64,000 nucleotides of DNA from a virus (Duplodnaviria > Heunggongvirae > Uroviricota > Caudoviricetes), in IMG/VR virus record IMGVR_UViG_3300023179_004209, positions 231,832 through 295,831 of that record. One strand, given 5' to 3'. The notes under the pieces were generated by a model that did not search any database, was not told where the DNA came from, and worked only from the letters and a program-made list of their open reading frames with translations. This document shows, in pieces, positions 5,655 to 63,717 of this stretch. The position numbers and the translations under genes were made by a program. The first letter of the stretch is position 1; each line of letters begins with the position of its first letter.

Positions 5655-5658
5655 TAAT

Positions 5659-5955
5659 ATGAAGAAGATTTATATTGAGAAGTTGGCAGAAGTACCCGGT
5701 GGATTACCTGCTAGAAATATGGATGAACATATTATGGGTAAACCTAATTATGATAACTACAGTAGCATTCCAATTGAATACAATTTGGAGGGTGTATTGA
5801 GTTATGATATTGAGGTGGGTAAACCTGTTGTTGTAGGTAGAACCAAGCGTAATGGTGTAGAAGCTTATGGCGTGTTTAGTACATCAAGGGTAACTGAGGT
5901 GGGTAACAACTATTTCAAAACACAGAATAGTGTATATAGTTATAAGTTTTTATGA
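5659..5955 (+). CDS. hypothetical protein
   Basis: internal ATG avoiding overlap with previous gene. Confidence 0.5.
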   Translation: MKKIYIEKLAEVPGGLPARNMDEHIMGKPNYDNYSSIPIEYNLEGVLSYDIEVGKPVVVGRTKRNGVEAYGVFSTSRVTEVGNNYFKTQNSVYSYKFL

Positions 5956-6134
5956 GGGCTATTAAGATTAAAGATTTACCGGATGGACCGTGGCGTGAAT
6001 ATGCGTTAGAAGCGCAACGGCGTGGAATTGAAATAGTTGGAGATGATATATTAAATGGGACTGATATAACGCTTATTGGTGCTATTGATATGATTAGAGA
6101 GTTGACGGAGAAGATTGAAAAGAAAACTGAATAA
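5952..6134 (+). CDS. hypothetical small protein
   Basis: ORF, 4-nt overlap with neighbour. Confidence 0.45.
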   Translation: MRAIKIKDLPDGPWREYALEAQRRGIEIVGDDILNGTDITLIGAIDMIRELTEKIEKKTE

Positions 6135-6140
6135 GTTTTT

Positions 6141-6488
6141 ATGAATATTACCGCTGCTAAAGATGTTCCTAATGTAGATCAAACTAGTATTTGGAAGGGA
6201 TTTTATGAGGCGCACTTTATGAGTGGTGAAGAAATAAACCAAAAGTATCCTATATTAAATACCAAGTGGAAATATTCAAATCATAAGCCAGTAACAGGTG
6301 GTAGTGAATATGGATACTACTATTCTTATTATAGGGATTGGAGTACTGAAGTAGTGACTGATCCGTGGTATAGAAATCTTATTAATAATGGTAATCCGAT
6401 TAATAAAAGTGAAATGGAAACTGTGTTTTCTACAACCGTGGAAGGCAACAAAGTTATATTAGTAATTTATCTAAATACATACGTATGA
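6141..6488 (+). CDS. hypothetical protein
   Basis: ORF. Confidence 0.5.
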   Translation: MNITAAKDVPNVDQTSIWKGFYEAHFMSGEEINQKYPILNTKWKYSNHKPVTGGSEYGYYYSYYRDWSTEVVTDPWYRNLINNGNPINKSEMETVFSTTVEGNKVILVIYLNTYV

Positions 6489-7048
6489 TTAACTATAAAC
6501 AACATTTGATTGACCGAGCAAATAATTTGGGTGTATATGATATTGCTTCTGTGGTAATTACAGATCCACGATTTGAATTGTGGAGTGGTAGTAGCAAAGA
6601 ACATCAACATCACTATGGTATGGGTGGTTTGATACAACATACATATGAAGTAGTTGAATTGTGTATTTCTAATTATATTTTATTAAAATTAGATGTTGAC
6701 CGAACTGAATTGTATTTGAGTGCGTTATTTCACGATTGTGGCAAAATGTGGGATTATGAACCAGTTAATGAAGAATATACAAAATGGCAAGGAACTGAAC
6801 ACAAACGAACTATTCATCATATCAGTCGTAGTGCAATTACTTGGAATCAGGCGTGTGCATTTCATAATTTCAAGTATGGTAAATATGCTGATAGTGTTAC
6901 CCACAACATTTTGTCACATCACGGACATCGTGAGTGGGGAAGTCCAGTGATGCCAAAGACTAAAGCTGCGTGGTTGTTGCATTTGTGTGATGGTATCAGT
7001 GCGAGAATGAATGATGCTGACAAGTGGGATTTTGTAAAAAAGGATTAA
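6485..7048 (+). CDS. HD-domain metal-dependent phosphohydrolase
   Basis: H..HD..H..H..D series: QHTYEV, FHDCGK, SHHGHREWG, HLCDGIS. Confidence 0.7.
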   Translation: MINYKQHLIDRANNLGVYDIASVVITDPRFELWSGSSKEHQHHYGMGGLIQHTYEVVELCISNYILLKLDVDRTELYLSALFHDCGKMWDYEPVNEEYTKWQGTEHKRTIHHISRSAITWNQACAFHNFKYGKYADSVTHNILSHHGHREWGSPVMPKTKAAWLLHLCDGISARMNDADKWDFVKKD

Positions 7049-10041: not shown

Positions 10042-10064
10042 CCCCTAGGATAAAGCCATAGGGG
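10042..10064. repeat. IS end hairpin CCCCTAGG-ATAAAG-CCATAGGGG (right end, overlaps tnpB stop)
   Basis: 8-bp stem with A bulge; near-identical copy at 11323-11345. Confidence 0.6.
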
Positions 10065-11211
10065 CTTGTAATGCTGTTGCTTTCACAACAGGCTTACATA
10101 CATTTGGCTGGTTGACGACAGCCTGCCCGTAAGTCAGGTAATTAGTCTGTGATACGGGAAGTTTGGACAATTTAGCAATATTGATTGCCGCATTAATGTC
10201 CGCATCATAAATAAGTCCATTCTTAGAGTAAAATCTACAACCTCTTCTTTCTCCATCACGATTTCCAGTTACACTATCAATCTGTGATGTATAATAAGGG
10301 CGAACTAGTAGAACCAATTTACCTTGATTCTCTGCCTTATAGCTTATTACTCTACGAAGTTCAAATATTGGAACTTGTCCAATTGAACGCTTATTTTGAT
10401 ATTTATTTTTTTTCTTTTTTATACCGACAAGATTTTCAAGCACGATTGTATCTGCTTCTGTGTTTAAAACTTCATTAGCAATCAAATGTGTTTGATTTCT
10501 ATTTTTGTTAGATTCTTTATGTTTTAACTTACGAAGATGTCTTCTGGCACTTTTAGTGCTTTTGGATTTGAGACTATCTTTTAAATGTCTCAATCTACGC
10601 TTATCTCCATTAAACTTTCTATCAATAATTATTCTACCATCACTACAAGCTGCATTACGACGAATGCCGATATCTACTCCTAAAGCGAGTTTTTGTTTTA
10701 ATGGTTCTTTAGGTTTATTATCAAATGTAAATGATATAAATAATTTACCATCATTTTCATAAATTAGAGGATCTGTATATTCATATTTGTCCAATAATTC
10801 CTTTAGTTTAGGATACACTACAAATTTAAATGATTGTCTTCCAGAAGTAGTAGTTATACGGATTGAATATTTATCAGTTTTGTTTTTTGAATAAAGTCTT
10901 TTATCTAAACGCATGGAAAGGTTTTTCTTTTCAATTGATTTTTTTAATCTGTGTTTATTTGACTTTGTAGATTTATAACTTGATAAACATTCTTGTTCTG
11001 CTTTAATAATAACTTGTGATGGTATATTTGGATATTGTTTTCTAATGTTATTATAAACTTTAGAATGTAAAACTAACAAACTATTTTTTGTTTCATTGAA
11101 TTGATGTTGTGAAGCAAAATTAAATACAACTTTATGCATTTCAAGAATTGACTTTAAACTATCAAAGTCTTCTTGATTTTTCATTAAAAGTTGTGTATTA
11201 TATGATATCAC
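10045..11211 (-). CDS. tnpB: TnpB (OrfB) RuvC-like RNA-guided nuclease family protein
   Basis: RuvC-I GVDIGIRRNAA, RuvC-II IVLENLVG, RuvC-III YDADINAAINIAK; zinc-finger Cys mostly lost. Confidence 0.75.
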   Translation of the reverse strand: MISYNTQLLMKNQEDFDSLKSILEMHKVVFNFASQHQFNETKNSLLVLHSKVYNNIRKQYPNIPSQVIIKAEQECLSSYKSTKSNKHRLKKSIEKKNLSMRLDKRLYSKNKTDKYSIRITTTSGRQSFKFVVYPKLKELLDKYEYTDPLIYENDGKLFISFTFDNKPKEPLKQKLALGVDIGIRRNAACSDGRIIIDRKFNGDKRRLRHLKDSLKSKSTKSARRHLRKLKHKESNKNRNQTHLIANEVLNTEADTIVLENLVGIKKKKNKYQNKRSIGQVPIFELRRVISYKAENQGKLVLLVRPYYTSQIDSVTGNRDGERRGCRFYSKNGLIYDADINAAINIAKLSKLPVSQTNYLTYGQAVVNQPNVCKPVVKATALQAPMALS

Positions 11212-24215: not shown

Positions 24216-25991
24216 ATGGCAATCAATATTTTTACACATATACGTAGAGGTTTATATGATAATGTTTACAATTGTATAGAAAAAGAAAAGGTGGATGTCA
24301 ATCAAAGAGATGATGACACTGGCAATCCACCACTGGTTGTTGCGGTAGAAGAAAACCAAATAGAAATAGTCAGATTACTATTAAACCACGGTGCTGATGC
24401 CAATTGTAAAGATTGGACCAGTAAAAATACCGCATTGGATGTAGCTGAACAAAAAGGTTTCAAAAATATTGCAGAAGTATTACAACAAAGAGGTGCAAAA
24501 TACAGTAGTGGTAGTAGTTTCCATTTAGCTGCAAAGAATGGTGATATCGTTTCTATCGAAGAAATGTTGAATAAAGGATGTGATATCAATGAAGTTGACG
24601 CAGGTAAAGGTTGGACTGCTCTACATTACGCTGTTAATTATGGACAAAAACACTTGGTTGAATATTTGATTATAAGAGGTGCAGATGTCAACAAGAAAGA
24701 TTTCTTGGGTAAAAACAATCCTATTGATGTATTATCCAACACCAATAGAGGTGAAATTGTTAAATTATTGAATAAATACGGTGCTAAATCCGCAGGTGGT
24801 GTTAGTATTCATTTCTGCGCAGAAACTGGTGATTTTGAAGGTGTACAATCATTCTTTGATAAAGATGGTAAAGTTAATGGTAGAGATGAAAAGAATGGAT
24901 GGATGCCATTACATTATGCCGTTAACGCTAACGATGTTGATATGGTGGAGTTTTTGGTACATTTGGGAGCAAATGTTAACGGTGCAGATTTTAAAGGTGA
25001 AATTGCTCCGTTAGACATTGCATTCAAGACTGGGAATGTAGAAATGCAAACATATCTACAATCCAAAGGTGCGCAAAGAAAGAAGAAACATGATACTGGT
25101 GGTGGTGGCAAAGATGTAACCATCTATATTACAGAAGAAGTCAAGAAACAAATTGCAATGTTTATTGAAAAGCGTGAAAAAGAAGAAGCTGCAATAAAGA
25201 AACATGAAGAAGAACAAACTGCAAAAGAACCTAAAAAGAAAGATGCACCAGCTAAGAAAATTAACTGGAAAGATTTCTTGAAACTTAAAGATATTCCAGT
25301 TGTAGAAAAGAAAGAAGAAAAGAAGGTAGAAGTGGTTAAACCCGTCAAACAAATTGTCAAGAAAGTTGAACAAGTTGATATAGAAGTTAAATCCAGTAGA
25401 TTACAATTGGATGTTGAACAAGAAGGTTACATATTCTTCATGGACATTGTTGCTTATAGTAAGAAAACAACTGATGAACAAAAGAAAGCTTGTAAAGATT
25501 TGGGTGCATTGGTTAAGTCTACAATGCAATATAAAACCGCTAATGCTCTTGAAAAGTTAATTATATTACCTACTGGTGACGGTATGGTATTGGGATTCTT
25601 TACTTATTTGGAAGATGCAATGAATTGTGCTATTGCTATAGCTAAAGCAGTAAAGGATAGACCAGATTTACAAATGAGAATGGGTGTACATTGTGGATCA
25701 GTAATTCCAATGGAAGACATCAATGGTAATCTTAACATTAGTGGTGACGGTATTAATTATGCTCAAAGAGTAATGGATGCGGGTGAAAGTAATCATTTAT
25801 TGGTTAGTTCAGCAGTAATGTTAAAGTATGACCGACCACCATATGTTTTGGTAAACGATCTGGGAGATGTAGTTGTAAAACATGGTGTAGTGATGCATTT
25901 GTATAGTTTACATGGTAGTGACTTTGGCAATAAAGCATTTCCATCTAGTAGAGTGAAGAAGGCAGAACCTACTGATTCAATCAAAAAATAG
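24216..25991 (+). CDS. ankyrin-repeat protein fused to class III nucleotidyl cyclase homology domain
   Basis: about 8 ANK repeats (GADANCKD, TALHYAV, PLHYAV...). K/E-rich linker. CHD motifs FFMDIVAYS, PTGDGMV, MRMGVHCGSV, SGDGINYAQRV. Confidence 0.65.
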   Translation: MAINIFTHIRRGLYDNVYNCIEKEKVDVNQRDDDTGNPPLVVAVEENQIEIVRLLLNHGADANCKDWTSKNTALDVAEQKGFKNIAEVLQQRGAKYSSGSSFHLAAKNGDIVSIEEMLNKGCDINEVDAGKGWTALHYAVNYGQKHLVEYLIIRGADVNKKDFLGKNNPIDVLSNTNRGEIVKLLNKYGAKSAGGVSIHFCAETGDFEGVQSFFDKDGKVNGRDEKNGWMPLHYAVNANDVDMVEFLVHLGANVNGADFKGEIAPLDIAFKTGNVEMQTYLQSKGAQRKKKHDTGGGGKDVTIYITEEVKKQIAMFIEKREKEEAAIKKHEEEQTAKEPKKKDAPAKKINWKDFLKLKDIPVVEKKEEKKVEVVKPVKQIVKKVEQVDIEVKSSRLQLDVEQEGYIFFMDIVAYSKKTTDEQKKACKDLGALVKSTMQYKTANALEKLIILPTGDGMVLGFFTYLEDAMNCAIAIAKAVKDRPDLQMRMGVHCGSVIPMEDINGNLNISGDGINYAQRVMDAGESNHLLVSSAVMLKYDRPPYVLVNDLGDVVVKHGVVMHLYSLHGSDFGNKAFPSSRVKKAEPTDSIKK

Positions 25992-38519: not shown

Positions 38520-39019
38520 TGATTAAATTATCTCAATTAATAAATGAATTAAAATTGACAAATGATATGCGTATTCATATGTCAAAGAATCCATTTGAAT
38601 TGGAACAAAGAACATTCAAACAAAACATTGGAATGAAACCATTTGGATTTTGGTATGGTTTTGGTAGTGAATGGATTGACTGGACACGAAGTGAAGTGCC
38701 GGATTGGGTTGGTAAATACATTTATAGTGTTGATATTGGAAATTCCAATGTATTACAGATAAATACCCATATGGAATTGATGCAATTTAACCGTGAATAT
38801 CAATCCAATATAAGTGGTATTGGACATAGAAGACTAGAAGGTGAAGTAATTGACTGGAAAAAAGTTGCTGATAAGTATGATGGTATAGAAATCAATCCAT
38901 ATCAATTTGAAGCTAGATATCAATATTTATGGTATTATGGTTGGGATATTGCAAGTGGGTGTATATGGAATTTAAAGAATGTTAAACTAAAGTTGTTAAC
39001 TGATAAAGGAATAGAATGA
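38519..39019 (+). CDS. protein with N-terminal MIKLSQLINE (propeptide candidate 4)
   Basis: ORF. Confidence 0.6.
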   Translation: MIKLSQLINELKLTNDMRIHMSKNPFELEQRTFKQNIGMKPFGFWYGFGSEWIDWTRSEVPDWVGKYIYSVDIGNSNVLQINTHMELMQFNREYQSNISGIGHRRLEGEVIDWKKVADKYDGIEINPYQFEARYQYLWYYGWDIASGCIWNLKNVKLKLLTDKGIE

Positions 39020-39537
39020 ACTTGATTACAGAAAATAGACACAGTGAATTTGGTTGTTTAATGGCTATAGTTGAACCAACCAGAGGACCACACATCATTA
39101 AATTTGGTAAAACAATAGTACCACCACAAATTCTTTATACTGATCCAAATGATAGTAGCTATGGTTATGATGATGAACCACACATTACAGCTAAGTATGG
39201 TTATTCTCCTGACTTAACAAGAGCTAATTTAGCCACCATTCTACAAGGTATCAAACCATTTATTGTTAAACTTACTGGTTTAACCCAATTTCAAAATGAA
39301 AAGTATGATGTAGTCAAGTTTGATGTAGAAAAGAATGAGATATTATCTGAAATAAGACGAAGATGCGATTGTTATAAGAATGAGGATAAATACCCAGATT
39401 ACAAACCACATATGACATTGGCTTATGTACAAAAAGGTAAGTTTCCTCATATTAAAGAAGGATTAAACATATCTGTACCAGTCACCAGATTCAAATATAG
39501 TGGTCAAGACGGTAAAAAATTATACATCAATTTGTAA
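39016..39537 (+). CDS. 2H phosphoesterase superfamily protein (LigT / cyclic phosphodiesterase-like)
   Basis: two H-x-T-x motifs (EPHITAKY and KPHMTLAY) about 85 aa apart. Confidence 0.6.
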   Translation: MNLITENRHSEFGCLMAIVEPTRGPHIIKFGKTIVPPQILYTDPNDSSYGYDDEPHITAKYGYSPDLTRANLATILQGIKPFIVKLTGLTQFQNEKYDVVKFDVEKNEILSEIRRRCDCYKNEDKYPDYKPHMTLAYVQKGKFPHIKEGLNISVPVTRFKYSGQDGKKLYINL

Positions 39538-39586: not shown

Positions 39587-40543
39587 ATGAGCAAGTTTCT
39601 ATCACTAATTGTATTTTCGTTGTTTTTGATTGGTTGTACGACAACAATTAAGCCAGGACAACAAGTGAGCACTGCGCAAGATGCGGTTGCCAAACAAGAA
39701 AAGAAAATTGATCAAACATATGATGATTTGGTCAAGAATGACAAGCATAAAAGAGTACAAACATCTGTATTAGCTCAAGGTATTCAATATTCGTTACAAC
39801 AAGTAACCAATGCACCAATTCAAGTAGAAACTGCTAAGAATCTTAATGAAAGAGTTATCAGTATAGTTGGTTCACCACATTTAGACGAAATCAAAAGAAT
39901 CAAAGCTACAATCGACTTATTAAATTCATCATTGGCCGAAGAAAGAAAGAAGGGTGAAGAATTGTTGGGTCAAAGAGATGTTATCATTGATAAGTTACAG
40001 AAGGAAAAGAATGAATTAAAAGACAAATATGATGACCAACTTTGGCAAATGACTGATAAAGCCAAAGAAGTTGCAAAAGAATCTGATGCAAAACAAGCTA
40101 CTATTGATAGTATGAGTGGTATGTTTGGTCTTAATGCAGTTTTCTGGGGTCTTAAAAAGTTTTTCTTTAGTTGTTTAACCGCAATCATTATATTTGTTGT
40201 AGTATTTGCTTTATTAAGAATACTAGCAAGTGTACATCCAGCAGCTGGTGCAGCATTTAGTATATTCAACATGCTTGGTTCTGGAATCTTGAGTTTGGTT
40301 AAAGGATTAACACCAAAAGCATTTGAATTGGCTAATTTTGCATCAAAAGATAAGGTTGATGAATATAAGTCACCACTTACTAAGATAGTTGATGTAATTC
40401 AAGAACTCAAGGAAAAACAAAAAGAATCTCCTGAAAGAGTATATCCATTGACCGAAGTATTAAAGAGATTTGACAAAGAAATGGATAGCACTGAAAAAGA
40501 CTTGATTGATGATATTCTAAAAGAACAAAAATGGATTAAATAA
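39587..40543 (+). CDS. lipoprotein / membrane protein with coiled-coil region
   Basis: MSKFLSLIVFSLFLIGC lipobox; internal TM segments. Confidence 0.55.
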   Translation: MSKFLSLIVFSLFLIGCTTTIKPGQQVSTAQDAVAKQEKKIDQTYDDLVKNDKHKRVQTSVLAQGIQYSLQQVTNAPIQVETAKNLNERVISIVGSPHLDEIKRIKATIDLLNSSLAEERKKGEELLGQRDVIIDKLQKEKNELKDKYDDQLWQMTDKAKEVAKESDAKQATIDSMSGMFGLNAVFWGLKKFFFSCLTAIIIFVVVFALLRILASVHPAAGAAFSIFNMLGSGILSLVKGLTPKAFELANFASKDKVDEYKSPLTKIVDVIQELKEKQKESPERVYPLTEVLKRFDKEMDSTEKDLIDDILKEQKWIK

Positions 40544-40546
40544 TTT

Positions 40547-40927
40547 ATGGACACTAATACTATACACACTATTTCGCAACAAGTTTTGGAAAACACTGCT
40601 CAAGATATGACAGGCAAATATGTCTGGATGTTCTTGGCTGGTTTAGTTGTATTGATGTTTAAATCAAGCATTGAAAAGTTAGCCGCAGCATTATTTATGT
40701 TTATTGGTTCTGACTATAAAGAAGATGATGTTGTATATGTTGACGGCAAGCCTGGCAGAATTGTTCGTGTAGGACTAACTAAAACAGTTTTCTTTATTTA
40801 TGATGTCGTAGACGGCAAAGTTGTTAGCGGTAATAAATTGGTAGTTCAAAACGAAAGACTCGCAGGTCTTAATATTGAAAAACCTTTACCTAACTTGGAC
40901 CTTAGTAGGTTCAAGAAAAATGACTAA
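40547..40927 (+). CDS. membrane protein (1 TM)
   Basis: YVWMFLAGLVVLMF hydrophobic helix. Confidence 0.5.
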   Translation: MDTNTIHTISQQVLENTAQDMTGKYVWMFLAGLVVLMFKSSIEKLAAALFMFIGSDYKEDDVVYVDGKPGRIVRVGLTKTVFFIYDVVDGKVVSGNKLVVQNERLAGLNIEKPLPNLDLSRFKKND

Positions 40928-40929
40928 CA

Positions 40930-41571
40930 ATGTTAAAATCATTATTATCACTACTATTAACTACAACAATATTTGCAGCGGAATTTGAATCGGTAAATTA
41001 TTATACAAAGAATTACCTATTTGACGCTCAAATATATTCTGTCAATACTTTCGTATCCGAAAACACACTTAGCCATCAACTAGGTGATTTTACGCCGCAT
41101 CTTGACTATGTACAATACCAAGGTTTGGATAAATATAAAGAAAGTGACTTTGGATTTGGTAGTGAATATAAACTAACAGATAAACTAAATTTGGATGTAG
41201 GTAGTTGGTATTACTATTATTACAGTGCAGGTGACCATTATTTTGAACCATACGCATCATTAACTTATGATTGGATAGTATCACCAACATTATATTTTAG
41301 TATGATAACATACAATAATACACCTAGAGCAACAATAAGCTTTGATTATAACAAAGATTTTAATGAAAAGCTGCATTTGAATGTAAGACCAGTGATTGGT
41401 ACTGCAGACTATGATGTAAGATATGGTTATTATGGTATAGTATTTGGTTTGGATTACAATGTAAATAAGAATTTTACATTGTTTACTGTTACAGAAGTTG
41501 ATAAACCTTTTAGTTCACCTGACGATAGTATCGTATACACTTATTCATTTGGAATCAAATTATCCCTATGA
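40930..41571 (+). CDS. secreted Tyr-rich beta-rich protein (possible outer-membrane protein)
   Basis: signal peptide MLKSLLSLLLTTTIFAA; alternating aromatic pattern. Confidence 0.5.
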   Translation: MLKSLLSLLLTTTIFAAEFESVNYYTKNYLFDAQIYSVNTFVSENTLSHQLGDFTPHLDYVQYQGLDKYKESDFGFGSEYKLTDKLNLDVGSWYYYYYSAGDHYFEPYASLTYDWIVSPTLYFSMITYNNTPRATISFDYNKDFNEKLHLNVRPVIGTADYDVRYGYYGIVFGLDYNVNKNFTLFTVTEVDKPFSSPDDSIVYTYSFGIKLSL

Positions 41572-43007
41572 AATTTCTTAAATTCAATTTGAGATTCGCA
41601 TTATCTACCAGCACACTATTCATTTTAGTGTTGGTAAGTATGGTATATTTCTTTTTGTTAATATTTGCAATTGAAGATATTGCAAAGAATAGTTTGAAAA
41701 GAAGTTTAAATACCTCGGTGAATATTTGTAGCAGTATTCTTGACCCAAATGAAATTGAAAAGTTAACTGAATATGAACAAGAAAAAAGCGAAGTATTTAT
41801 CAATTACAGAAAGTCTATCAAAGAAATAAAGAAAGAAGTAGAAGATATTAAATTTGTTTATATTGTAAGACAAACGGGTACAAATATCACTTATATAATA
41901 GATTGTGGTGATGATGTATCCGAACAAGCTAAATTGGGTGAAATATATGATGATGCGGGTGATGGATTGAAAGAATTATTTAACAATCCAGTTGAAGGTG
42001 TAACATTTGAGAAAGAATATTATACAGACAAGTGGGGTACATTTTTATCCGCATATAAACCAATATTTAAAAACGGTAAAATCATATATGCAGTTTGCAG
42101 TGATATCAAGTCAGTTGATGTTGAAAAGTATATATCAAATTATAAAAAGAAGTTTACTTGTGCATTTTTTACATTGTTAATTGTTATATTTCCAATCATA
42201 TGTTGGATAACAAATATGATTAGAAGACCACTTAATAAGTTAAGAGATGAAATTCTCAAGTTAAAAGATTTGGATGTAGATGAACATATTGATTTTAAGA
42301 GTAGTATCAGTGAAGTAAATGATATGATTGACGCAACTGATAAGGTAAAAACTGGTTTAAGATCATTTTCAAAGTATGTACCTGACAAGGTTGTAAAACA
42401 ATTGATAAGTCAAGGTAAGGATGCAAAAATTGGTGGGGAAAAAGAATATGTAACAATACTATTTAGTGACATTGAAGGATTTACAAGTATATCTGAAAAC
42501 AATGATACTCAAGAAGTTGTAACTGCATTAAATGAATATTTTGATATCTATGTACATTGTTTGGAAGAAAGTGGTGCAACTGTTGATAAATTCATTGGTG
42601 ACGCTGTAATGTCATTTTGGAATGCACCAAGTAAAGTTGAAAACCATGAATTTATTGCGGTCAAAACTGCAATGGAAATTGTCAAAGAAATTAATAAATT
42701 GAATCAAAAATGGAAAACTGAAGGTAAGAAATTTACATTCAAAACCAGAATAGGTATCAATTCTGGTGAAGTTATTGTCGGTAATATTGGTTCGACAAAC
42801 CGTATCAATTATACTGTTACTGGTGATCCTGTTAATTTGGCATCAAGATTAGAAGCGTCAAATAAACAATACAATACAACAATTTTAGTAAGTGAATCTG
42901 TTTATAATAAAACAAAAGAGTCAATTGATTATAATTATATTGACACAGTGAAGGTAAAAGGAAAAGAAATATATGTAAAAGTATATCAACCCGTTAAACT
43001 CAAGTAA
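41568..43007 (+). CDS. transmembrane sensor class III adenylyl/guanylyl cyclase
   Basis: TM1, about 150-aa extracytoplasmic domain, TM2, linker, then CHD. CHD motifs FSDIEGFTSISE, KFIGDAVMSFWNAP, RIGINSGEVIVGNIGS, TVTGDPVNLASRLE. Confidence 0.75.
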   Translation: MKFLKFNLRFALSTSTLFILVLVSMVYFFLLIFAIEDIAKNSLKRSLNTSVNICSSILDPNEIEKLTEYEQEKSEVFINYRKSIKEIKKEVEDIKFVYIVRQTGTNITYIIDCGDDVSEQAKLGEIYDDAGDGLKELFNNPVEGVTFEKEYYTDKWGTFLSAYKPIFKNGKIIYAVCSDIKSVDVEKYISNYKKKFTCAFFTLLIVIFPIICWITNMIRRPLNKLRDEILKLKDLDVDEHIDFKSSISEVNDMIDATDKVKTGLRSFSKYVPDKVVKQLISQGKDAKIGGEKEYVTILFSDIEGFTSISENNDTQEVVTALNEYFDIYVHCLEESGATVDKFIGDAVMSFWNAPSKVENHEFIAVKTAMEIVKEINKLNQKWKTEGKKFTFKTRIGINSGEVIVGNIGSTNRINYTVTGDPVNLASRLEASNKQYNTTILVSESVYNKTKESIDYNYIDTVKVKGKEIYVKVYQPVKLK

Positions 43008-43013
43008 CAAATT

Positions 43014-43790
43014 ATGAAATTCGCAACACCAAGAAGTATTAAAAATACATCATTACAACTATTCAACAAACACGATGAAAGATTATTAGTACTTTACGAT
43101 TACTTGATTAACATTTGTAATTATGGTGATGACAAATATCATAGACTAGAAACAAAATATCACGATTTGTATCATTTTTTAACGAGTACATCTGTATTTC
43201 TTGATGTATATGTTAGTATTGTCAATAAAAATATCATTAAATTAAATGAACAAGATTTCTTTTGCGGTGTTGTTGCTACAATGTATCATGATATAGGATT
43301 TTTAAAGTTAAAAGAAGATGAAAATGGAACGGGGGCACAATATATTAATACACATGTAGAAAGAGGATGTCACTTTATAGGTAATAATTTTGACGGTATA
43401 TTAACTGAAGAAGAAAAGAGTAGAATTTGTAATTTAATAATGGTAACGGATTATTTTAAAAAGGTAGAGAATTTAGAAATAGACCATGTTGGTGCTTGTG
43501 TTGCTTTGGGTGATTGGTTGAGTCAAATGGGTGATGAACAATATGTAGAAAAATTAAGTAAATTGTATCAAGAATTTGATGAATTTCAGAAATATCACAA
43601 TTTGAATATGTACAATGGATTGCAAGATTTGATAAGCAAAACACCAGGATTTTGGTATAAATTGGTTAAACCATTGCTTGATAGTAAATTTTATGCGTTA
43701 TATGAGTACACATCCAGTAACTATATTGTAATGATTGAAAATAATATCAACCGATTAGTTAAAGAATATAACTTAAATTATGTAATCTAA
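43014..43790 (+). CDS. HD-domain phosphohydrolase
   Basis: LYHFLTS..MYHDIGF HD motif; downstream His/Asp. Confidence 0.55.
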   Translation: MKFATPRSIKNTSLQLFNKHDERLLVLYDYLINICNYGDDKYHRLETKYHDLYHFLTSTSVFLDVYVSIVNKNIIKLNEQDFFCGVVATMYHDIGFLKLKEDENGTGAQYINTHVERGCHFIGNNFDGILTEEEKSRICNLIMVTDYFKKVENLEIDHVGACVALGDWLSQMGDEQYVEKLSKLYQEFDEFQKYHNLNMYNGLQDLISKTPGFWYKLVKPLLDSKFYALYEYTSSNYIVMIENNINRLVKEYNLNYVI

Positions 43791-44105
43791 GTTCTCATCA
43801 CATCTTTCAAACACACATTTAATATTTTCAGGCTTTCTTCTAAATCTACCCAATTTAGGGTGTTCACTACTATACACAGTCAATCGTTGACAAGATAGTG
43901 CATATCCTATCAAATCTCTGCTCAATCCATTTCTTTCGTGGGTTACTATCATATAGTTTTCATCTGGTACATCCAATTCAAATGTAGTTACTATTCTATA
44001 TGTCTTTTTAACGCTTTTGGGTTGTAACGGTTGATTTTCCATACTCAAATATATAATATTAAATTTAGTATAAAAACAATTATAAATCCTATTTATGTAT
44101 AACAA
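43773..44105 (-). CDS. hypothetical protein on minus strand
   Basis: ORF convergent with HD gene; start may be at internal MENQ. Confidence 0.45.
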   Translation of the reverse strand: MLYINRIYNCFYTKFNIIYLSMENQPLQPKSVKKTYRIVTTFELDVPDENYMIVTHERNGLSRDLIGYALSCQRLTVYSSEHPKLGRFRRKPENIKCVFERCDENLDYII

Positions 44106-44804: not shown

Positions 44805-45170
44805 ATGGACTTAATAACTAAATTCTTAACTCTACATAATCAATTGAAGGTTTACCATTGGCAAACTGACAGCTATGCACAACACCAAGCTTTCGGTGGT
44901 GCTTATGATGAATTCACAGGATTGATTGACCAATTCATTGAAGAATTCATGGGTAAATATTCAAGAATAATGAATAAAGAAGGATTCAAAGCAGTATCAT
45001 CTAACATCACTGATAAAGATCCAGAGAAATTCATTGAAGAATATATAACATTCCTCATTGTTGAATTGCCTAAAGGTCTAAGTGAAAAAGACACAAACTT
45101 ATTAAACATAAGAGATGAAATGTTGGGCGAATTACAAAAACTCAAATACCTACTCACACTAAATAAATAA
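44805..45170 (+). CDS. hypothetical protein
   Basis: ORF followed by terminator. Confidence 0.5.
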   Translation: MDLITKFLTLHNQLKVYHWQTDSYAQHQAFGGAYDEFTGLIDQFIEEFMGKYSRIMNKEGFKAVSSNITDKDPEKFIEEYITFLIVELPKGLSEKDTNLLNIRDEMLGELQKLKYLLTLNK

Positions 45171-45196
45171 CACTAGAATACAATAAAAAATTTCTA

Positions 45197-45530: not shown

Positions 45531-45606
45531 GTCCCTATAGCTCAAACGGATAGAGCATCTGCCTTCTAAGCAGATGATCCAGGTTCGATTCCTGGTGGGG
45601 ATACCA
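45531..45606 (+). tRNA. tRNA-Arg (anticodon TCT)
   Basis: hand-folded cloverleaf. Acceptor GTCCCTA/TGGGGAT with wobbles; D-stem GCTC/GAGC; anticodon arm TCTGC-CTTCTAA-GCAGA; T-arm CCAGG-TTCGATT-CCTGG; A+CCA. Confidence 0.7.
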
Positions 45607-45668
45607 TTTTTTGAACATATTTATAAATTTGTATATATTTATATGTTCAAACTTCTCTAAAAAAGAAG

Positions 45669-45696
45669 TTGATTCTTTGAAAATTTGCGGTAAGAT
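45669..45696 (+). promoter_or_regulatory. promoter TTGATT-N17-TAAGAT followed by the AGTAGTAAGT..GTTCTTT motif
   Basis: one of four promoters in the RNA cluster followed by GTAGTAAGT. Confidence 0.45.
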
Positions 45697-45823
45697 AAAG
45701 AAGTAGTAAGTAATTTGTTCTTTCAGCATGGTGGGAGAAGCACTCCTCTAGAACATCTTCGTATGGCGGAACTGCCTTGACCTTTAATCAAAGGGGGTCA
45801 CCAACGAAAGAAACAAATTACTG

Positions 45824-45852
45824 TTGACAAAAGAATAAATCGTGGTAAGATA
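45824..45852 (+). promoter_or_regulatory. promoter TTGACA-N17-TAAGAT followed by AGTAGTAAGTTCTTTAAAA
   Basis: as above. Confidence 0.5.
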
Positions 45853-45936
45853 AAAAAGTAGTAAGTTCTTTAAAATAAAAATATGAAAGTAAAGGATTAC
45901 TAATCTTTTGCTTATAATGTATAATATATATTCTAT

Positions 45937-46368
45937 ATGGAACATAGTAAACAAAAAGGCAATTTAGGATTTTCTGCAACTCTCAAAGAATTACATAAAC
46001 TTGGATATAATGTATTTACTGAAGTTGGAGATTACTCTAAAATAGATATGATAGTTGAGGTAAAGAATAAATTAATTAAACTTCAAGTTAAATACATTAC
46101 GGATTCAAATGGAAAAGTAACTTTAAACTTACAAAAAAGTGGACCAAATGGGTATAGATACAAGTATACAGAACTTGATATAGATTTGTTCAGTATTTAC
46201 TTACCTACTTTAGATAAAGTAATTTTTGTACCTGCTAAATTAGCTTGTAAGAATACTAAAGCATTTAGCATTAGATTTAATGAAAGTAAAAATCATCAAA
46301 GTAAACATATTAATTATATAAGTGAATTTGAAGATTTAAATAAAACACTAAACAATTTAGTTCTTTAA
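45937..46368 (+). CDS. hypothetical protein embedded in the tRNA cluster
   Basis: ORF; stop codon lies within the GTTCTTTAAAA motif. Confidence 0.5.
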   Translation: MEHSKQKGNLGFSATLKELHKLGYNVFTEVGDYSKIDMIVEVKNKLIKLQVKYITDSNGKVTLNLQKSGPNGYRYKYTELDIDLFSIYLPTLDKVIFVPAKLACKNTKAFSIRFNESKNHQSKHINYISEFEDLNKTLNNLVL

Positions 46369-46375
46369 AATTTAT

Positions 46376-46451
46376 GGGATTGTAGCTCAATTGGCAGAGC
46401 AGTTCGCTTTTAACGAATTGGTTGACGGTTCAAGTCCGTCCGGTCCCACCA
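46376..46451 (+). tRNA. tRNA-Lys (anticodon TTT)
   Basis: GGGATTG..CGGTCCC acceptor; anticodon loop CTTTTAA; T-arm GACGG-TTCAAGT-CCGTC; A+CCA. Confidence 0.7.
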
Positions 46452-46457
46452 TTTAAT

Positions 46458-46532
46458 GGCGTTATCGTCTATCGGCTAGGACACTGGACTTTCACTCCGG
46501 TAAGAGGGGTTCGATTCCCCTTAACGCTACCA
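46458..46532 (+). tRNA. tRNA-Glu (anticodon TTC)
   Basis: GGCGTTA..TAACGCT acceptor; anticodon loop CTTTCAC; T-arm GGGG-TTCGATT-CCCC. Confidence 0.65.
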
Positions 46533-46721
46533 TTTTGTTTGTCCGTTGCTTAAAAGAAACGGAATGGTGGAGGGTAAATAACCAAAACACCCCTAGAGTT
46601 GGAAGTTCTCTTAAAAAACTTCTTGGTTGCGGGGATGAGTCATGGTATACTTTGTTTGTTGGGTGGACAAAGTATTCAATAAACACACCCAACACAATTT
46701 ATATAGTTCTTTAAAATTCAA

Positions 46722-46878
46722 TAGCTGGCGGCAGGTTAGATCTGGGGGTGGCTCATAACCATTCATTAAGTAGGTGCGATTCCTATGCTTCAGCAACCAT
46801 TTGAATGGCTGGGGTTTCAGCAAACGACGAATCCTCATAAGGTTTGTTAAGTGGGGGCAGCACCCATACCAGCTACCA
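46722..46878 (+). ncRNA. tRNA-like / mini tmRNA-like element (acceptor-like stem + T-like arm + CCA; internal GCA AAC GAC GAA TCC TCA TAA)
   Basis: 5' TAGCTGG pairs with 3' CCAGCTA followed by CCA; hairpin GTGGG-GGCAGCA-CCCAT; exact 12-mer of canonical tmRNA tag start at 46820. Confidence 0.3.
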
Positions 46879-46970
46879 TTTACGCCCGGAGAATATCCGA
46901 TCAATACGCAACACGGAAAGAAACCTCCTCTAAAGGGAAACTTGCTAGTAGCGGGCGACGATTTTAGATG

Positions 46971-46998
46971 TTGACAAAACATCAATGTGTGATAAGAT
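46971..46998 (+). promoter_or_regulatory. promoter TTGACA-N16-TAAGAT
   Basis: drives short RNA ending at terminator 47109-47141. Confidence 0.5.
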
Positions 46999-47004
46999 GA
47001 TTTT

Positions 47005-47141
47005 AAGGTTAGTTGAGTCCGTTACCTTAGATTAAAAACTCAACAGTGTTTGATCAGAGCTTCTATAATAAATGATCTCTCGACCAGTAGATAGCTGGTT
47101 ACATTTTCAGTGGTTTTGAAGATAAAACCACTCGGATTTTT
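47005..47141 (+). ncRNA. putative small RNA between promoter and terminator
   Basis: hairpin GTTGAGT..ACTCAAC and terminator hairpin AGTGGTTTT..AAAACCACT + TTTTT; no ORF. Confidence 0.4.
47109..47141 (+). terminator. Rho-independent terminator
   Basis: 9-bp stem + CGGATTTTT. Confidence 0.6.
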
Positions 47142-47166
47142 AGTTAGTTCTTTAACAAAACAATTT

Positions 47167-47252
47167 GCGGGGTGTCAGAAGTCTGGTATCTGGCTACGCT
47201 CATAACGTAGTGCCATTTGGCCTCGGAGGTTCAAATCCTCCCCCCGCTACCA
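47167..47252 (+). tRNA. long-variable-arm tRNA with anticodon CAT (identity uncertain)
   Basis: D-stem CAGA/TCTG; anticodon arm CTACG-CTCATAA-CGTAG; 14-nt variable arm; T-arm GGAGG-TTCAAAT-CCTCC; 6-bp acceptor GCGGGG/CCCCGC; ends ..TACCA. Confidence 0.5.
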
Positions 47253-47258
47253 TTTAGT

Positions 47259-47350
47259 GGCCTCAAGATGTAAGGTGCATGGGGAGACTTATAATCTCTA
47301 TAATCGCTCGATTGGCGTTCTGGGCAGTTCGATTCTGCATGAGGCTACCA
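47259..47350 (+). tRNA. type II tRNA, Leu/Tyr-like body with anticodon loop CTTATAA (apparent anticodon TAT)
   Basis: acceptor GGCCTCA/TGAGGCT; anticodon stem GGAGA/TCTCT; long variable arm; T-loop TTCGATT; A+CCA. Confidence 0.5.
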
Positions 47351-47529
47351 TTTTTGATCGTGTAATGGAATTAGACATACGGATGATGGGTAGCACAAAG
47401 TTACGTTACTTGGAGTGGTTTCCAAGTGTAGTTGAAGCAAATTGTGTCCATCAGACGGGTGCTAGATATAGTCTAACCAACCTTGAAACTAGTTGTGGGT
47501 ATTCCAGTCCCACCACGATCACATTTTAC

Positions 47530-47613
47530 GGGTGTGTGATGTAATGGCAGCCATGCAGCACTCAAAATGCTGTGGAGAAATCCGTGGGGGTTCAAGTCCC
47601 TCCATACCCACCA
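47530..47613 (+). tRNA. tRNA-Leu (anticodon CAA)
   Basis: acceptor GGGTGTG/CATACCC; anticodon arm CAGCA-CTCAAAA-TGCTG; long variable arm; T-loop TTCAAGT; A+CCA. Confidence 0.6.
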
Positions 47614-47660
47614 TTTTTATTGTTCATTGAAAATTAGTAGACGCAAAGTAATTTGTATTT

Positions 47661-48350
47661 ATGTCTTCCAAAATACTACTTATTAGTATGAAAAAGATAG
47701 ATATACAAGAGTTAACAATTGCAACAAAAACATCTATATCATACGCTGAAGTTTTAAAAAAGTTAAGACTGAAGCAAAGTGGTTCAATGCAAAGTCGTAT
47801 TAAGAACGAGATTAAAAATCTTGGACTAGATATTAGTCACTTTACTGGACAAGCGTGGTGTAGAGGTAAAAATTCTTATCAAGACAAAAGAATAAGAAAC
47901 AAATATTCTGATGAAATTATTTTTACTGAAAATAGTAATGTTTCAAACGTTGTAGTAAAAAACAGATTGAAGTCAAATCCAAATTATATACATAAATGTG
48001 AATTATGTTCTATTAAAGAGTGGTATGACCCGTTTGAAAACAAAATCAAACCAGTAAATTTAGAACTTGACCATATAAATGGCAATGAAAGAGATAACAG
48101 AAAAGAAAATTTAAGATTGATTTGTTCTAATTGTCATAGTTTTACTCCTACATATAAAGGGAGAAACATTAATAAAACTTTTAGAAATGGTGAAAAGAAA
48201 ATATCTGATGATGTTTTGATAGAACAATTAAAAACAAAAAACATAAGACAAACTTTAATTTCAGTTGGAATGTCTGCTTCTGGTGAAAATTATGAAAGAT
48301 GTAAAATTTTGAAAAACCAGTTGACAACAAAGAATGATGTGGTAAGATGA
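47661..48350 (+). CDS. HNH homing endonuclease inserted between tRNA genes
   Basis: ELDHINGNERDNRKENLRLICSNCHSF HNH motif. Confidence 0.7.
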   Translation: MSSKILLISMKKIDIQELTIATKTSISYAEVLKKLRLKQSGSMQSRIKNEIKNLGLDISHFTGQAWCRGKNSYQDKRIRNKYSDEIIFTENSNVSNVVVKNRLKSNPNYIHKCELCSIKEWYDPFENKIKPVNLELDHINGNERDNRKENLRLICSNCHSFTPTYKGRNINKTFRNGEKKISDDVLIEQLKTKNIRQTLISVGMSASGENYERCKILKNQLTTKNDVVR

Positions 48351-48351
48351 A
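48323..48351 (+). promoter_or_regulatory. promoter TTGACA-N17-TAAGAT inside the 3' end of the HNH gene, followed by AGTAGTAAGT..GTTCTTTAAAA
   Basis: same architecture as 45824 promoter. Confidence 0.5.
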
Positions 48352-48387
48352 AGAGTAGTAAGTGATGGTTCTTTAAAAACTTTTAGT

Positions 48388-48476
48388 GGGCAAGTGGCGA
48401 AATTGGAGAACCGCAAGGGACTTAAAATCCCTTACATTAGAAACGCTGTGGGTTCGAATCCCACCTTGCCTACCAT
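48388..48476 (+). tRNA. tRNA-Leu (anticodon TAA)
   Basis: acceptor GGGCAAG/CTTGCCT; anticodon arm AGGGA-CTTAAAA-TCCCT; long variable arm; T-arm GTGGG-TTCGAAT-CCCAC; A+CCA. Confidence 0.65.
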
Positions 48477-48499
48477 TTTTTGATAGTTCTTTAACAATT

Positions 48500-48810
48500 T
48501 AAGATAGTGGCGGAACAACAATTAGTTTAGTTGTAACGCACAATATATGGCGTTGAAAAACGTTGTATATTGGTTGGAGTAAGAATCATGGAGGGTAAGT
48601 CTATGGAGAATTTGAGGTCGTTCAACCTCAAATTTGAGCGTATCGGGACCGTAGCTAAAATTTAAATGATAAATCGTAGCCCGTTGTGGGGAAAACAAAA
48701 TCCCATCAGTCATCAACACAAGGAGTAATTACCCGTGTGGACTGTGGATGAATAACCAGTCATGATTAAGAAACTTGGAGGTAATCATTAGTCCTTCCTA
48801 TTTTGATTTA
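48500..48810 (+). ncRNA. uncharacterized structured non-coding segment
   Basis: no ORF; hairpins GAGGTCGTTCAACCTC, CGTTGAAAAACG; preceded by GTTCTTTAACA motif. Confidence 0.25.
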
Positions 48811-48814
48811 ATAT

Positions 48815-48887
48815 GCGGGTCAAGTGTAAAGAGAGCACGTTAGTCTACCAGACTAAAAGGCGAAATGCAAAGTTCGGACCCGCTCCA
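48815..48887 (+). ncRNA. tRNA-like RNA lacking an anticodon loop
   Basis: 7-bp acceptor GCGGGTC/GACCCGC + T + CCA. D-like hairpin GTG/CAC. Middle arm is 6-7-bp stem TTAGTCT/AGACTAA with 3-5-nt loop. T-like hairpin CGAA/TTCG. Confidence 0.35.
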
Positions 48888-48897
48888 TTTTAGTAAT

Positions 48898-48990
48898 GGC
48901 TCTGTGATGTATGGTGCATGGGCAGACTTATAATCTGTATAATCCCTAGATTTGGGTGCTGATAGGGTTCAATTCCCTACGGAGCCACCA
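48898..48990 (+). tRNA. type II tRNA paralog of 47259..47350, anticodon loop CTTATAA (apparent anticodon TAT)
   Basis: acceptor GGCTCTG/CGGAGCC; anticodon stem GCAGA/TCTGT; about 24-nt variable region; T-arm TAGGG-TTCAATT-CCCTA; A+CCA. Confidence 0.5.
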
Positions 48991-62582: not shown

Positions 62583-62819
62583 ATGTTTAGTAATAAAAAT
62601 ATTGTAAAGTATTGTGCAAAGTATTTTGTTCTTTTGACGGTGGGTGCTTACGTTTTTAACACATCCGTAATATTCATTAATCAAAAGAGTGACGTTGCAA
62701 ATCTTATCGGGTCCGCACTTTTTGCTGGACTTTTCGTTGGGACGCTGTTAATCTTAAAAAGTGATGTGACCAAGTTGGTCAAGAACATCAACAAAACTGA
62801 AAATAAAGAAAATGAATAA
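62583..62819 (+). CDS. small membrane protein (2 TM)
   Basis: hydrophobic segments. Confidence 0.45.
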   Translation: MFSNKNIVKYCAKYFVLLTVGAYVFNTSVIFINQKSDVANLIGSALFAGLFVGTLLILKSDVTKLVKNINKTENKENE

Positions 62820-63717
62820 GAAAATCGTTAGTCTGATTGCTAGTGTCGTCGCCATCGCCGCCTTTACTGGTTGTGATCGGGTTGAACCGGGATATGTTGG
62901 TATTAAGGTGAACCAGTGGGGTAGTCAGAAAGGAGTCAATGATTTTCCGTTGGTTACTGGTGGTGTGTTCTACAACCCCATCACTGAGGACATCTACAAG
63001 TTCCCAACCTTTATGCAAAATGCTGTGTGGGATCGTGAACGTGGTAGTAAGGAAAGTCCCGGTGATGACAGTGTGACCTTTAATAGTATTGAAGGTGCTG
63101 TTGTTAATGCTGACATTGCTCTTGCTTATACGTTTGTGGCAGAGAAAGTTCCTCAGATCTTTGTTGAATTCCGTCAGTCACCAGAGATTATTACTCATGG
63201 ATTTATGCGAAATGAGATTAATAACGCATTCAACCGTGTTGCTAGTACCATGAAGGCTAGTGATATCTTTGGTGAGAGAAAGCAGTACCTTCTTGACAAT
63301 GTTAAGAGTAATCTTAACGCACAACTTGGTCCCAAGGGATTTAGGTTTGAATTGATCAGTTTCCATGGTGGTCTTCGTGTTGATCAGAGTGTTCAGACCC
63401 GTATCAACGCAGTCCTAGAGGCTAGTCAAAAGGCTATTGAAGCTGAAACCAAGGTTCGTCAAAGTAAGGCTGAGGCGGATCAAGTGATTGAAAAGGCCCG
63501 TGGTGAGAAGGAAAGTAACATTGCTAAGGCAGAGGGTGAAGCACGTAGTATTGCTCTTAAGGCAGAAGCACAGTCCAAGGCTAACTTGGTTTTGGCTCAG
63601 TCTCTAACCCCGGCACTGGTTCAGTATGAAGCTCTTCAGAGGTGGGATGGTAAGTTGCCGGTATATAATGGAGGTGGTGTTGTACCGTTCGTTAACATTG
63701 GAAACACCAACCGATAA
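62812..63717 (+). CDS. SPFH/band-7 domain lipoprotein (HflK/C-prohibitin-like)
   Basis: lipobox AAFTGC; C-terminal Ala/Glu/Lys-rich coiled coil QVIEKARGEKESNIAKAEGEARSIALKAEAQSKANLVLAQ. Confidence 0.55.
   Translation: MNKKIVSLIASVVAIAAFTGCDRVEPGYVGIKVNQWGSQKGVNDFPLVTGGVFYNPITEDIYKFPTFMQNAVWDRERGSKESPGDDSVTFNSIEGAVVNADIALAYTFVAEKVPQIFVEFRQSPEIITHGFMRNEINNAFNRVASTMKASDIFGERKQYLLDNVKSNLNAQLGPKGFRFELISFHGGLRVDQSVQTRINAVLEASQKAIEAETKVRQSKAEADQVIEKARGEKESNIAKAEGEARSIALKAEAQSKANLVLAQSLTPALVQYEALQRWDGKLPVYNGGGVVPFVNIGNTNR

Follow-up and report, generated by a model that had tools for sequence, protein, structure and literature searches.

Class III nucleotidyl cyclases are already known from phages, where they have so far been noted only as accessories of curli modules: Wittmers et al. 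(2022, PMC9599517) count an adenylate cyclase, besides a histidine kinase and FecR, among the members of pelagiphage curli/type VIII secretion system (T8SS) clusters. The class III cyclase domain occurs in several PHROG families and is annotated in Pelagibacter phage HTVC008M, Methylophilales phage Melnitz, and an Acinetobacter phage; in the first two of these phages, the enzyme joins CHASE2 to a cyclase homology domain (CHD). Here, we analyze a 64,000-nucleotide stretch of an IMG/VR virus record (IMGVR_UViG_3300023179_004209, positions 231,832 to 295,831), referred to throughout as the window. Two consecutive plus-strand genes in it, both located where an earlier note on this DNA had placed them, encode a sensor class III (IIIb-type) nucleotidyl cyclase of 479 amino acids (aa) (41568..43007) and an HD metalloprotein of 258 aa with a fold like that of class I cyclic-nucleotide (cNMP) phosphodiesterases (PDEs) (43014..43790). 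We consider it probable that the region is a phage-borne cyclic-nucleotide signaling cassette that is expressed in an infected Gram-negative host. Relative to the described phage cyclases, what would be new is a Cache-cyclase paired with a class-I-like PDE. The earlier note held that a receptor-type cyclase had not been described in phages, which the CHASE2 cyclases of HTVC008M and Melnitz contradict; for the Cache-cyclase/PDE pair, the statement stands so far, as our literature search, of incomplete coverage, found neither such a phage pair nor a prokaryotic or viral class-I-like PDE with a cyclase.

Like the curli modules of pelagiphages and methylophages, the window carries a phage receptor-type class III cyclase at the 3′ end of a run of genes for envelope and outer-membrane proteins, and the catalytic domains of the curli-module cyclases are 34-37% identical to that of the window cyclase. 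The sensor, however, is CHASE2 there and a single Cache domain here, and the partners there are CsgF, CsgG, CsgB, and FecR, with no HD or PDE gene following those cyclases. A curli/T8SS-cyclase module was tried for the window itself and rejected, the window genes giving no Csg, curlin, FecR, or CHASE2 matches. With class IIIb sensor cyclases such as CyaB and CyaC, the window protein shares the two metal-binding Asp residues, the Lys/Thr pair, the Asn/Arg pair, and a preceding transducer helix, but its N-terminal module differs from theirs in consisting of a transmembrane (TM) helix, a single Cache domain, a second TM helix, and a HAMP-like linker. The eukaryotic class I PDEs (PDE1-11, RhoPDE, and kinetoplastid PDEB1; PF00233) share with the HD family the motif Y-H-[ND]-x-x-H ... 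H-D, and PDE2/5/6/10/11 are paralleled by GAF fusions among the HD relatives, though the bacterial GAF is C-terminal. Unlike the class I enzymes, the HD protein has only 258 aa as compared with a catalytic domain of ~330, is ~10% identical to them, and stays below the Pfam threshold.

Architecture and Specificity of the Sensor Cyclase

The order of parts that the earlier note read from the first gene, namely, a TM helix, an extracytoplasmic domain, a second TM helix, a linker, and a class III cyclase domain, holds in our analysis, and all of the motifs it quoted are present. Hydropathy gives two TM segments enclosing a loop of ~160 aa. TM1 (aa 17-35, 41616..41672; all parts of the protein are on the plus strand) has a Kyte-Doolittle 19-residue mean of 3.05 and is a helix in the AlphaFold2 (AF2) model, and TM2 (aa 196-214, 42153..42209) reaches 2.55 and belongs to a model helix that is unbroken from residue 182 to 233. 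The loop between them (aa 36-195, 41673..42152) folds into a PAS-like alpha/beta domain whose N-terminal helix is long. A choice between CHASE and Cache had been left to a fold search, and the fold found is that of a single Cache/PDC sensor domain; none of the Pfam Cache models matched the protein at E<=0.1. The 50 residues after TM2 (aa 215-264, 42210..42359) form a juxtamembrane linker that is modeled as a helix up to residue 233, a low-confidence connector, and a second helix at 248-267. This helix-connector-helix topology of the AF2 model is compatible with a HAMP-like element, and the region gives weak NCBIfam alignments with CreC, CztS, and AtoS over their N-terminal TM-sensor-TM-HAMP parts. 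A further helix (aa 265-290, 42360..42437) resembles a transducer element: the cyclase segment RSFSKYVPDKVVKQLI, just before the catalytic domain, aligns with NTFGRYLTDQVVATLL, which directly precedes the Cya2 catalytic domain in 6fht and which we take to be the cyclase transducer element of class IIIa/b cyclases.

The catalytic domain (aa 291-479, 42438..43007) is matched by Pfam PF00211 Guanylate_cyc over aa 292-467 (E=5.8e-27, 94.9 bits, cutoff 21.9). Its best solved relatives are Synechocystis Cya2 (6fht/2w01, 99-110 bits), Pseudomonas aeruginosa CyaB (3r5g, 105 bits), and Spirulina CyaC (1wc0, 89 bits); the photoactivated cyclases bPAC and OaPAC are also among the closest, in a set that, with Cya2, CyaB, and CyaC, spans 89-110 bits. 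Alignment with CyaB and Cya2 locates the metal-binding aspartates at D301 (FSDI) and D345 (IGD) and the transition-state pair at N423 and R427 (VNLASR). At the position of K341 (vdKFiGD), CyaB and the engineered phytochrome-cyclase fusion 6fht have Lys and the guanylyl-specific Cya2 (2w01) has Glu; at the position of T416 (nYTvTGd), CyaB has Thr and Cya2 has Gly. Because K341 and T416 align with the purine-specifying positions, the specificity pair reads as Lys341/Thr416, of the class IIIb type. The Lys/Thr pair is the class IIIb signature in the established classification of class III cyclases, and regulation by bicarbonate is typical of that class. ATP is thus the substrate to be expected from the alignment. 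The earlier note had proposed a Lys/Asp pattern with ATP specificity; the Lys and the ATP expectation survive, and the second residue is Thr416 rather than Asp. All six residues (D301, K341, D345, T416, N423, and R427) are invariant among 16 family members of 70-96% identity, so the objection that the domain might lack catalytic residues on proper alignment falls away. Their presence on one chain is compatible with a homodimer having two active sites. Against six relatives, the gene shows a dN/dS of 0.05-0.16.

The cyclase has >5,000 metagenomic relatives, and identity is 75% or more for each of the best 120 listed. An identical copy of its sequence is not on record. A tblastn search with the sensor part gave no match in 50,697 deposited phage genomes, and the two peptides with the highest conservation in the family alignment, both from the sensor part, have no relative in 185,579 species represented by one genome each. 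A genome scan with the cyclase alignment returned a single archaeal cyclase domain, which is unrelated.

Class III-type cyclase domains are also used by Pycsar, and the two adjacent genes could accordingly be read as a Pycsar-like abortive-infection or superinfection-exclusion pair, in which the cyclase would raise a cNMP alarm and the HD protein would be the activated toxic effector, for example a nuclease or a nucleotide-depleting hydrolase. The PADLOC PycC models do match the cyclase domain (PDLC00734, E=3.2e-36). PycC, however, is itself a homologue of class III cyclases and its models match generic cyclase domains, and the window protein matches the solved pyrimidine cyclase of Pycsar, PaPycC (7r65), at no more than 23 bits as compared with 105-110 bits for bona fide adenylyl cyclases. 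The purine-specifying Lys/Thr pair is intact. On the effector side, nothing here corresponds to the cNMP-binding plus TM or TIR effectors of Pycsar (PycTM, PycTIR): the HD protein has no CAP_ED sensor, no TM or TIR effector domain, and no PADLOC match, and the folds closest to it belong to cNMP hydrolases, not to nucleases. We regard this explanation as highly improbable. As a separate observation, a Pycsar system proper was rejected as a candidate, no gene neighboring the cyclase matching any PADLOC model.

The HD Protein and Its Likeness to Class I Phosphodiesterases

The second gene had been assigned to the HD hydrolases from its MYHDIGF motif, and both the motif and the assignment are borne out. 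The protein has 56 metagenomic homologues (52-99% identity), all of which bear a precomputed match to PF28239 "Npun_R2479"; judged from these matches, it would be a distant member of this uncharacterized HD family. A sensitive profile search recovered ~620 cluster representatives of the family, among them proteins of Nitrospirota, Desulfuromonadaceae, and Thermodesulfobacteriota. In an alignment of 115 family members, cellular ones included, the window protein is ~25% identical to the others, and H50, H54, H92, D93, and D167 are invariant across all 115. Within the literature covered, which was incomplete, we found nothing on the function of Npun_R2479, one proteomics mention apart. The protein has no tblastn match in the 50,697 deposited phage genomes, narrow HD patterns retrieved no relatives in a scan of cellular genomes, and a viral structure library gave only weak "metal-dependent phosphohydrolase" matches.

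The AF2 model (pLDDT 80.6, pTM 0.81) is all-helical and has the PDE catalytic fold reaching past the HD core. Structure comparison aligns PDEs with the model over 204-222 residues, whereas generic HD proteins align over 141-168, which argues that the PDE likeness goes beyond the HD core. Among the other HD proteins compared, the generic HD protein 2pq7 scores 14.1 (168 residues aligned), YpgQ 12.4, PPX/GppA ~11, SpoT/Rel/small alarmone hydrolases and SAMHD1 ~9 each, and HD-GYP 8-10.

A second line of evidence comes from sequence profiles. Searches of the Protein Data Bank (PDB) with the single HD sequence or a narrow-family profile gave only spurious matches and were set aside; a profile of the broad family was needed. 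When the profile of the 115 family members was run against 177,635 distinct PDB sequences, the 60 matches listed were class I PDEs only, led by PDE5 (E=3.5e-4) and including PDE10A and PDE4C (5e-3) and PDEB1 (0.025). The grouping with dNTPases or (p)ppGpp hydrolases that would have undone the earlier proposal is therefore not what emerges among these matches. The alignment spans Y-H-[DN]-x-x-H ... H-D, which in PDE5 reads YHNWRHAF...AALSHD. With human PDE4D2 (comparison sequence 100% identical to 1OYN), a local alignment of low probability (E=0.0056) places H50/H54 on H160/H164 and H92-D93 on H200-D201, which we take to be the general-acid histidine and metal ligands of class I PDEs. Sub-threshold Pfam PDEase_I matches are present in 30 of the 115 relatives (best E=2.2e-4). 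Compared by eye with the PDE motifs ATDM, ADLSNP, and (Q)VGFIDYIVHPL, the HD-family segments VTD146Y, GD167WLSQ, and GF213xxxLVxPL look similar; we judge D167 in the same way to be equivalent to PDE4D D318, and GF213xxx[LI]VxPL to resemble the PDE4D segment QVGFIDYIVHPL, with T210 at the Gln position.

Members of the HD superfamily catalyze diverse reactions, and the PDE match might reflect nothing beyond the shared HD core, in which case the protein would be an HD phosphohydrolase of generic type, with nucleotides or nucleic acids as substrates and no relation to cNMPs. The weakness of the sequence likeness to PDEs is in keeping with this possibility, as is the match of the generic Pfam HD model to 65 of the 115 relatives. 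It is opposed by the longer span of the PDE alignments, by the exclusive presence of PDEs among the listed profile matches, by the invariance of the general-acid His of H-x3-H, and by the fusions and neighborhoods, described below, that link the family to cyclases, GAF domains, and cNMP-binding proteins. We consider a generic hydrolase improbable. Taken together, the fold, the metal-site motifs, and the genomic associations make hydrolysis of a cyclic nucleotide the most likely activity of the HD protein. To our knowledge, class I cNMP PDEs are generally regarded as eukaryotic, and the HD family could realistically be an unrecognized prokaryotic and viral branch of them.

Conservation of the Cassette and the Proposed Circuit

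In cellular relatives, the HD domain is found joined to signaling modules. One longer relative (P0287) has the architecture HisKA-REC-class III cyclase-[HD domain], and several relatives of 540-577 aa from Desulfobulbaceae and Thermodesulfobacteriota are [HD domain]-GAF proteins. GAF is the regulatory cNMP-binding module of PDE2/5/6/10/11. In a Desulfuromonadaceae locus (L013, 3425..8042), the HD gene lies between the gene for a GAF-HD-GYP protein and a convergent CHASE2-cyclase gene, and in a Nitrospirota locus (L012, 5622..7382), it is followed directly by the gene for a cNMP-binding Ser/Thr kinase with a PilZ match; both look like candidate bacterial cNMP signaling islands. The natural cyclase-HD fusion and the GAF fusions, together with the adjacency in viral contigs described next, lend support to the synthase-plus-degrader pairing that the earlier note had put forward.

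To follow the cassette across phages, stop-to-stop open reading frames (ORFs) of 30 related phage loci were searched with the window proteins. Of the 28 loci having upstream sequence, 25 have the cyclase gene directly 5′ of the HD gene. Directly 5′ of the cyclase, at every locus with sufficient sequence, is a gene for a secreted protein whose stop codon overlaps the cyclase start, and this gene is absent wherever the cyclase is absent; the two behave as one insertion/deletion unit. Three loci look like natural indel variants of the cassette. Two of them (L018 and L019, both 5606..6774) have the order lipoprotein, 126-aa membrane protein (TM126), HD protein, with a junction of only 8 bp, and the third (L020, 3999..6768) has the order TM126, ankyrin-repeat (Ank) protein, HD protein; the secreted protein and the cyclase are both missing from all three. 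The HD gene in cyclase-less loci has dN/dS values of 0.11 and 0.08, indicating purifying selection, and the cyclase, HD, and secreted-protein genes are under purifying selection as a whole (dN/dS 0.05-0.22). Neighboring genes differ in their identity to the window: the cyclase and HD proteins are 87% and 52% identical in L024, and 84% and 95% identical in L034, discordances that argue for recombination between modules. Two HD allele classes, at ~54% and >75% identity, are apparent when L024, L026, and L034 are compared with the window. The cassette genes overlap or are tightly packed, with no intrinsic terminator among them, the first strong one lying at 45196-45227. A promoter scan of the cassette was uninformative, as it gave fewer sites than shuffled sequence.

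A second cyclase domain is encoded 15 kb from the cassette in the window. The gene at 24216..25991 (plus strand) specifies a 591-aa ankyrin-repeat protein (Ank_2, 1.7e-38) with a compact, noncanonical C-terminal CHD (Guanylate_cyc, E=9.6e-5; PDB matches 3mr7, 2e-4, and Rv1900c, 4.5e-3). In this Ank-CHD protein, both aspartates for metal binding are kept (FMDIVAYS, PTGDG), as is the Asn/Arg pair (GDGINYAQR), and its specificity positions are noncanonical. Its orthologue is directly 5′ of the secreted protein-cyclase-HD block in nine loci (L010, L011, L016, L023, L026, L028, L029, L031, and L033) and directly 5′ of the HD gene in L020, and it is >95% conserved even where the HD protein is 54% identical. 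The Ank-CHD protein may be a second source of the nucleotide handled by the HD enzyme.

The three cyclase-less loci bear on a further explanation, in which the HD enzyme would serve mainly in counter-defense or host manipulation by destroying host Pycsar cCMP/cUMP, other immune signals, or cAMP, and the cyclase would be separate and optional. These loci hold a selected HD gene without the secreted protein-cyclase unit, and the disparity in L024 points to independent recombination. Phage enzymes that degrade cNMPs in anti-defense are known (Apyc1 and Acb1, as cited in PMC12484599), and a 2H phosphoesterase with a weak Acb1 match is encoded 3.5 kb upstream. The frequent adjacency of the cyclase speaks against a scavenging role, however, as do the lack of a PADLOC match for the HD protein and the position of the L020 HD gene directly after Ank-CHD. 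Cellular members of the family, fused to a cyclase or GAF domain or encoded beside a cyclase or a cNMP-dependent kinase, also point to housekeeping cNMP signaling rather than immunity. On this evidence, we hold a primary role in counter-defense to be rather unlikely.

Under the preferred reading, that of a signaling cassette, the cyclase would sit in the inner membrane as a homodimer, as its complement of six catalytic residues on one chain suggests. Its periplasmic domain, whose single-Cache fold is the observed part, would bind a small-molecule ligand and gate the enzyme. The signal would pass from TM2 through the HAMP-like linker and the transducer helix to the class IIIb-type domain, which, from its residues, is predicted to convert ATP to 3′,5′-cAMP. 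The secreted beta-rich protein, which is translationally coupled to the cyclase and probably located in the outer membrane, might provide ligand access or partner the sensor in some other way. The HD protein would act as a minimal cytoplasmic enzyme that hydrolyzes a cyclic nucleotide to the 5′-NMP, making the signal transient or setting its baseline. The output would presumably be read by host CRP or another cNMP-binding protein, or by a phage factor encoded outside the window; the reader is placed there because no receptor is found among the window genes.

Several results weigh against this reading. Neither the 52 other window ORFs of at least 100 aa nor those scanned before yielded a cNMP-binding or CRP-type protein. 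The HD protein does not need this cyclase: since the three variant loci retain a selected HD gene without the secreted protein and cyclase, the HD gene can stand without these two, and the pair is frequent, not obligatory. The window HD protein has no Pfam match of its own in the copy searched, which lacked PF28239, and it falls short of the PF00233 threshold; against NCBIfam NF045583 ("Npun_R2479 family HD domain-containing metalloprotein"), it scores E=2.5e-11 and 43 bits, where the cutoff is 400 bits. In sequence, the HD family resembles class I PDEs weakly and locally, with E values of ~1e-4 to 1e-2 and an hhalign probability of 6.5%, and the residue at the "glutamine switch" position, as aligned by eye, is apparently replaced by Thr, so that substrate recognition in the HD family may differ. 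Two of the four cellular HD neighborhoods have no cNMP genes, only a LysR regulator being nearby. In the linker, Pfam detects no HAMP domain and a linker profile run against the PDB finds no HAMP protein, for which reason we name the region HAMP-like only. The secreted protein, too, is placed by weak matches: TIGR02001 ("TorF family putative porin") hits three of the seven members of its family below the cutoff (best E=1.1e-3).

A bolder version of the preferred reading has the region as a self-contained sensory pathway, comprising an outer-membrane channel, the Cache receptor, cAMP synthesis, a class-I-type PDE, and perhaps the Ank cyclase, with Npun_R2479/PF28239 as the prokaryotic and viral counterpart of the class I PDEs. 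We advance it tentatively, as something short of an even prospect. If it is true, the infecting virus could pick up a chemical cue from outside the cell and adjust host or phage physiology. If the enzymology holds, an abundant environmental phage lineage would carry both a writer and an eraser of a cyclic nucleotide, with the writer gated by an extracytoplasmic receptor, and the virus would sense its surroundings via a receptor of its own during infection. The Npun_R2479 HD family, with its GAF and cyclase fusions, would gain a first functional handle, and prokaryotic class-I-like cNMP PDEs would bear on the evolutionary origin of the catalytic domain of eukaryotic PDEs. In that case, the modular Cache-cyclase and the compact 258-aa enzyme could also serve as tools.

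Companion Genes and the Viral Source

The genes upstream of the cyclase are as the earlier note described them, a lipoprotein, a membrane protein, and a secreted Tyr-rich protein, all on the plus strand. The last of these (40930..41571, 213 aa) ends in an ATGA overlap with the cyclase start. It has a signal peptide, 12% Tyr, and a C-terminal strand with alternating hydrophobics, and the window protein itself scores 16 bits against TIGR02001, where the cutoff is 47. Its gene has a dN/dS of 0.09-0.22. A plausible assignment from these features is an outer-membrane beta-barrel, putatively a TorF-like porin. Upstream of it is the variable companion TM126 (40547..40927), part of which weakly resembles the MscS beta-domain (PF00924, E=0.032, below cutoff) and which is present in most loci with sufficient sequence. 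The next gene upstream (39587..40543) encodes another variable companion, the lipoprotein, which sequence and hydropathy describe as having a lipobox (LIGC), a coiled-coil middle, and a C-terminal TM segment; its true start is probably the ATG at 39587. A 319-aa orthologue was called in L003, and the lipoprotein co-occurs at many loci. The strongly hydrophobic C-terminal TM segment is followed by a tail of ~70 aa, and the protein could bridge the outer and inner membranes in the manner of a unimolecular spanin, but it is much longer.

Just 5′ of this membrane-protein block, the gene at 39016..39537 (plus strand) encodes the 2H phosphoesterase (2_5_RNA_ligase2, E=3.4e-10), which is LigT-like, of the RNA 2′,3′-cyclic phosphodiesterase type, and has a weak match to the anti-CBASS protein Acb1 (E=1e-3); it is syntenic in L018 and L019. 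On the other side of the cassette, a small convergent ORF (43773..44042, minus strand) overlaps the 3′ end of the HD gene, a position kept in L017, L018, L019, L034, and L035. A gene for a DUF5856/Dps-like "starvation-inducible regulator" (44805..45170, plus strand) lies ahead of the terminator at 45196-45227.

The source of the window is an abundant, uncultured lineage of large tailed phages, as seen from the metagenomic homologues, the phage genes on their contigs, and the 21 related loci that belong to the IMG/VR viral collection. Homologue contigs reach 196 kb; other genes on them specify T4 rIIA/rIIB-like proteins, DNA ligase, dCMP deaminase, and HNH/GIY-YIG endonucleases. Given the hundreds of metagenomic homologues and the dN/dS values of the three core genes, the ORFs are not due to chance. 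Through their rIIA/rIIB-like genes, related contigs hint at a distant T4-like kinship. A megablast of the cassette against the 50,697 deposited phage genomes found no nucleotide-level relative; the window helicase has Rhodothermus phage RM378 as its sole match (25% identity), and the RNA ligase is ~26% identical to its matches. The description of the phage as lytic in the earlier note was not borne out. A diderm host is suggested by the lipoprotein and the beta-rich secreted protein.

The window as a whole is AT-rich (GC ~31%) and densely packed, with plus-strand genes. An exception in strand is a transposase-like gene (10045..11211, minus strand; phrog_506, E=7e-42), the surrounding phage region being otherwise plus-strand. 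Eight tRNA genes form a cluster at 45531..48990, several of them with predicted lengths that are unusually long (Ile-TAT 92 and 93 nt, Met 87 nt, and Leu 84-88 nt), and the ORFs between them include one of 229 aa (47661..48350) with Cys/His motifs, possibly an HNH endonuclease. Among the 52 window ORFs scanned as one set is a PD-(D/E)XK (PDDEXK_5) match. At the family level, other window ORFs comprise a Macro domain, a Zeta-toxin-like kinase, an AAA_33 kinase, a canonical HD-domain protein, three YopX proteins, and an Ig-domain protein (DUF7936), and near the end of the window, a plus-strand gene (62812..63717) encodes an SPFH/Band 7 protein (PF01145, 1.8e-17; phrog_200).

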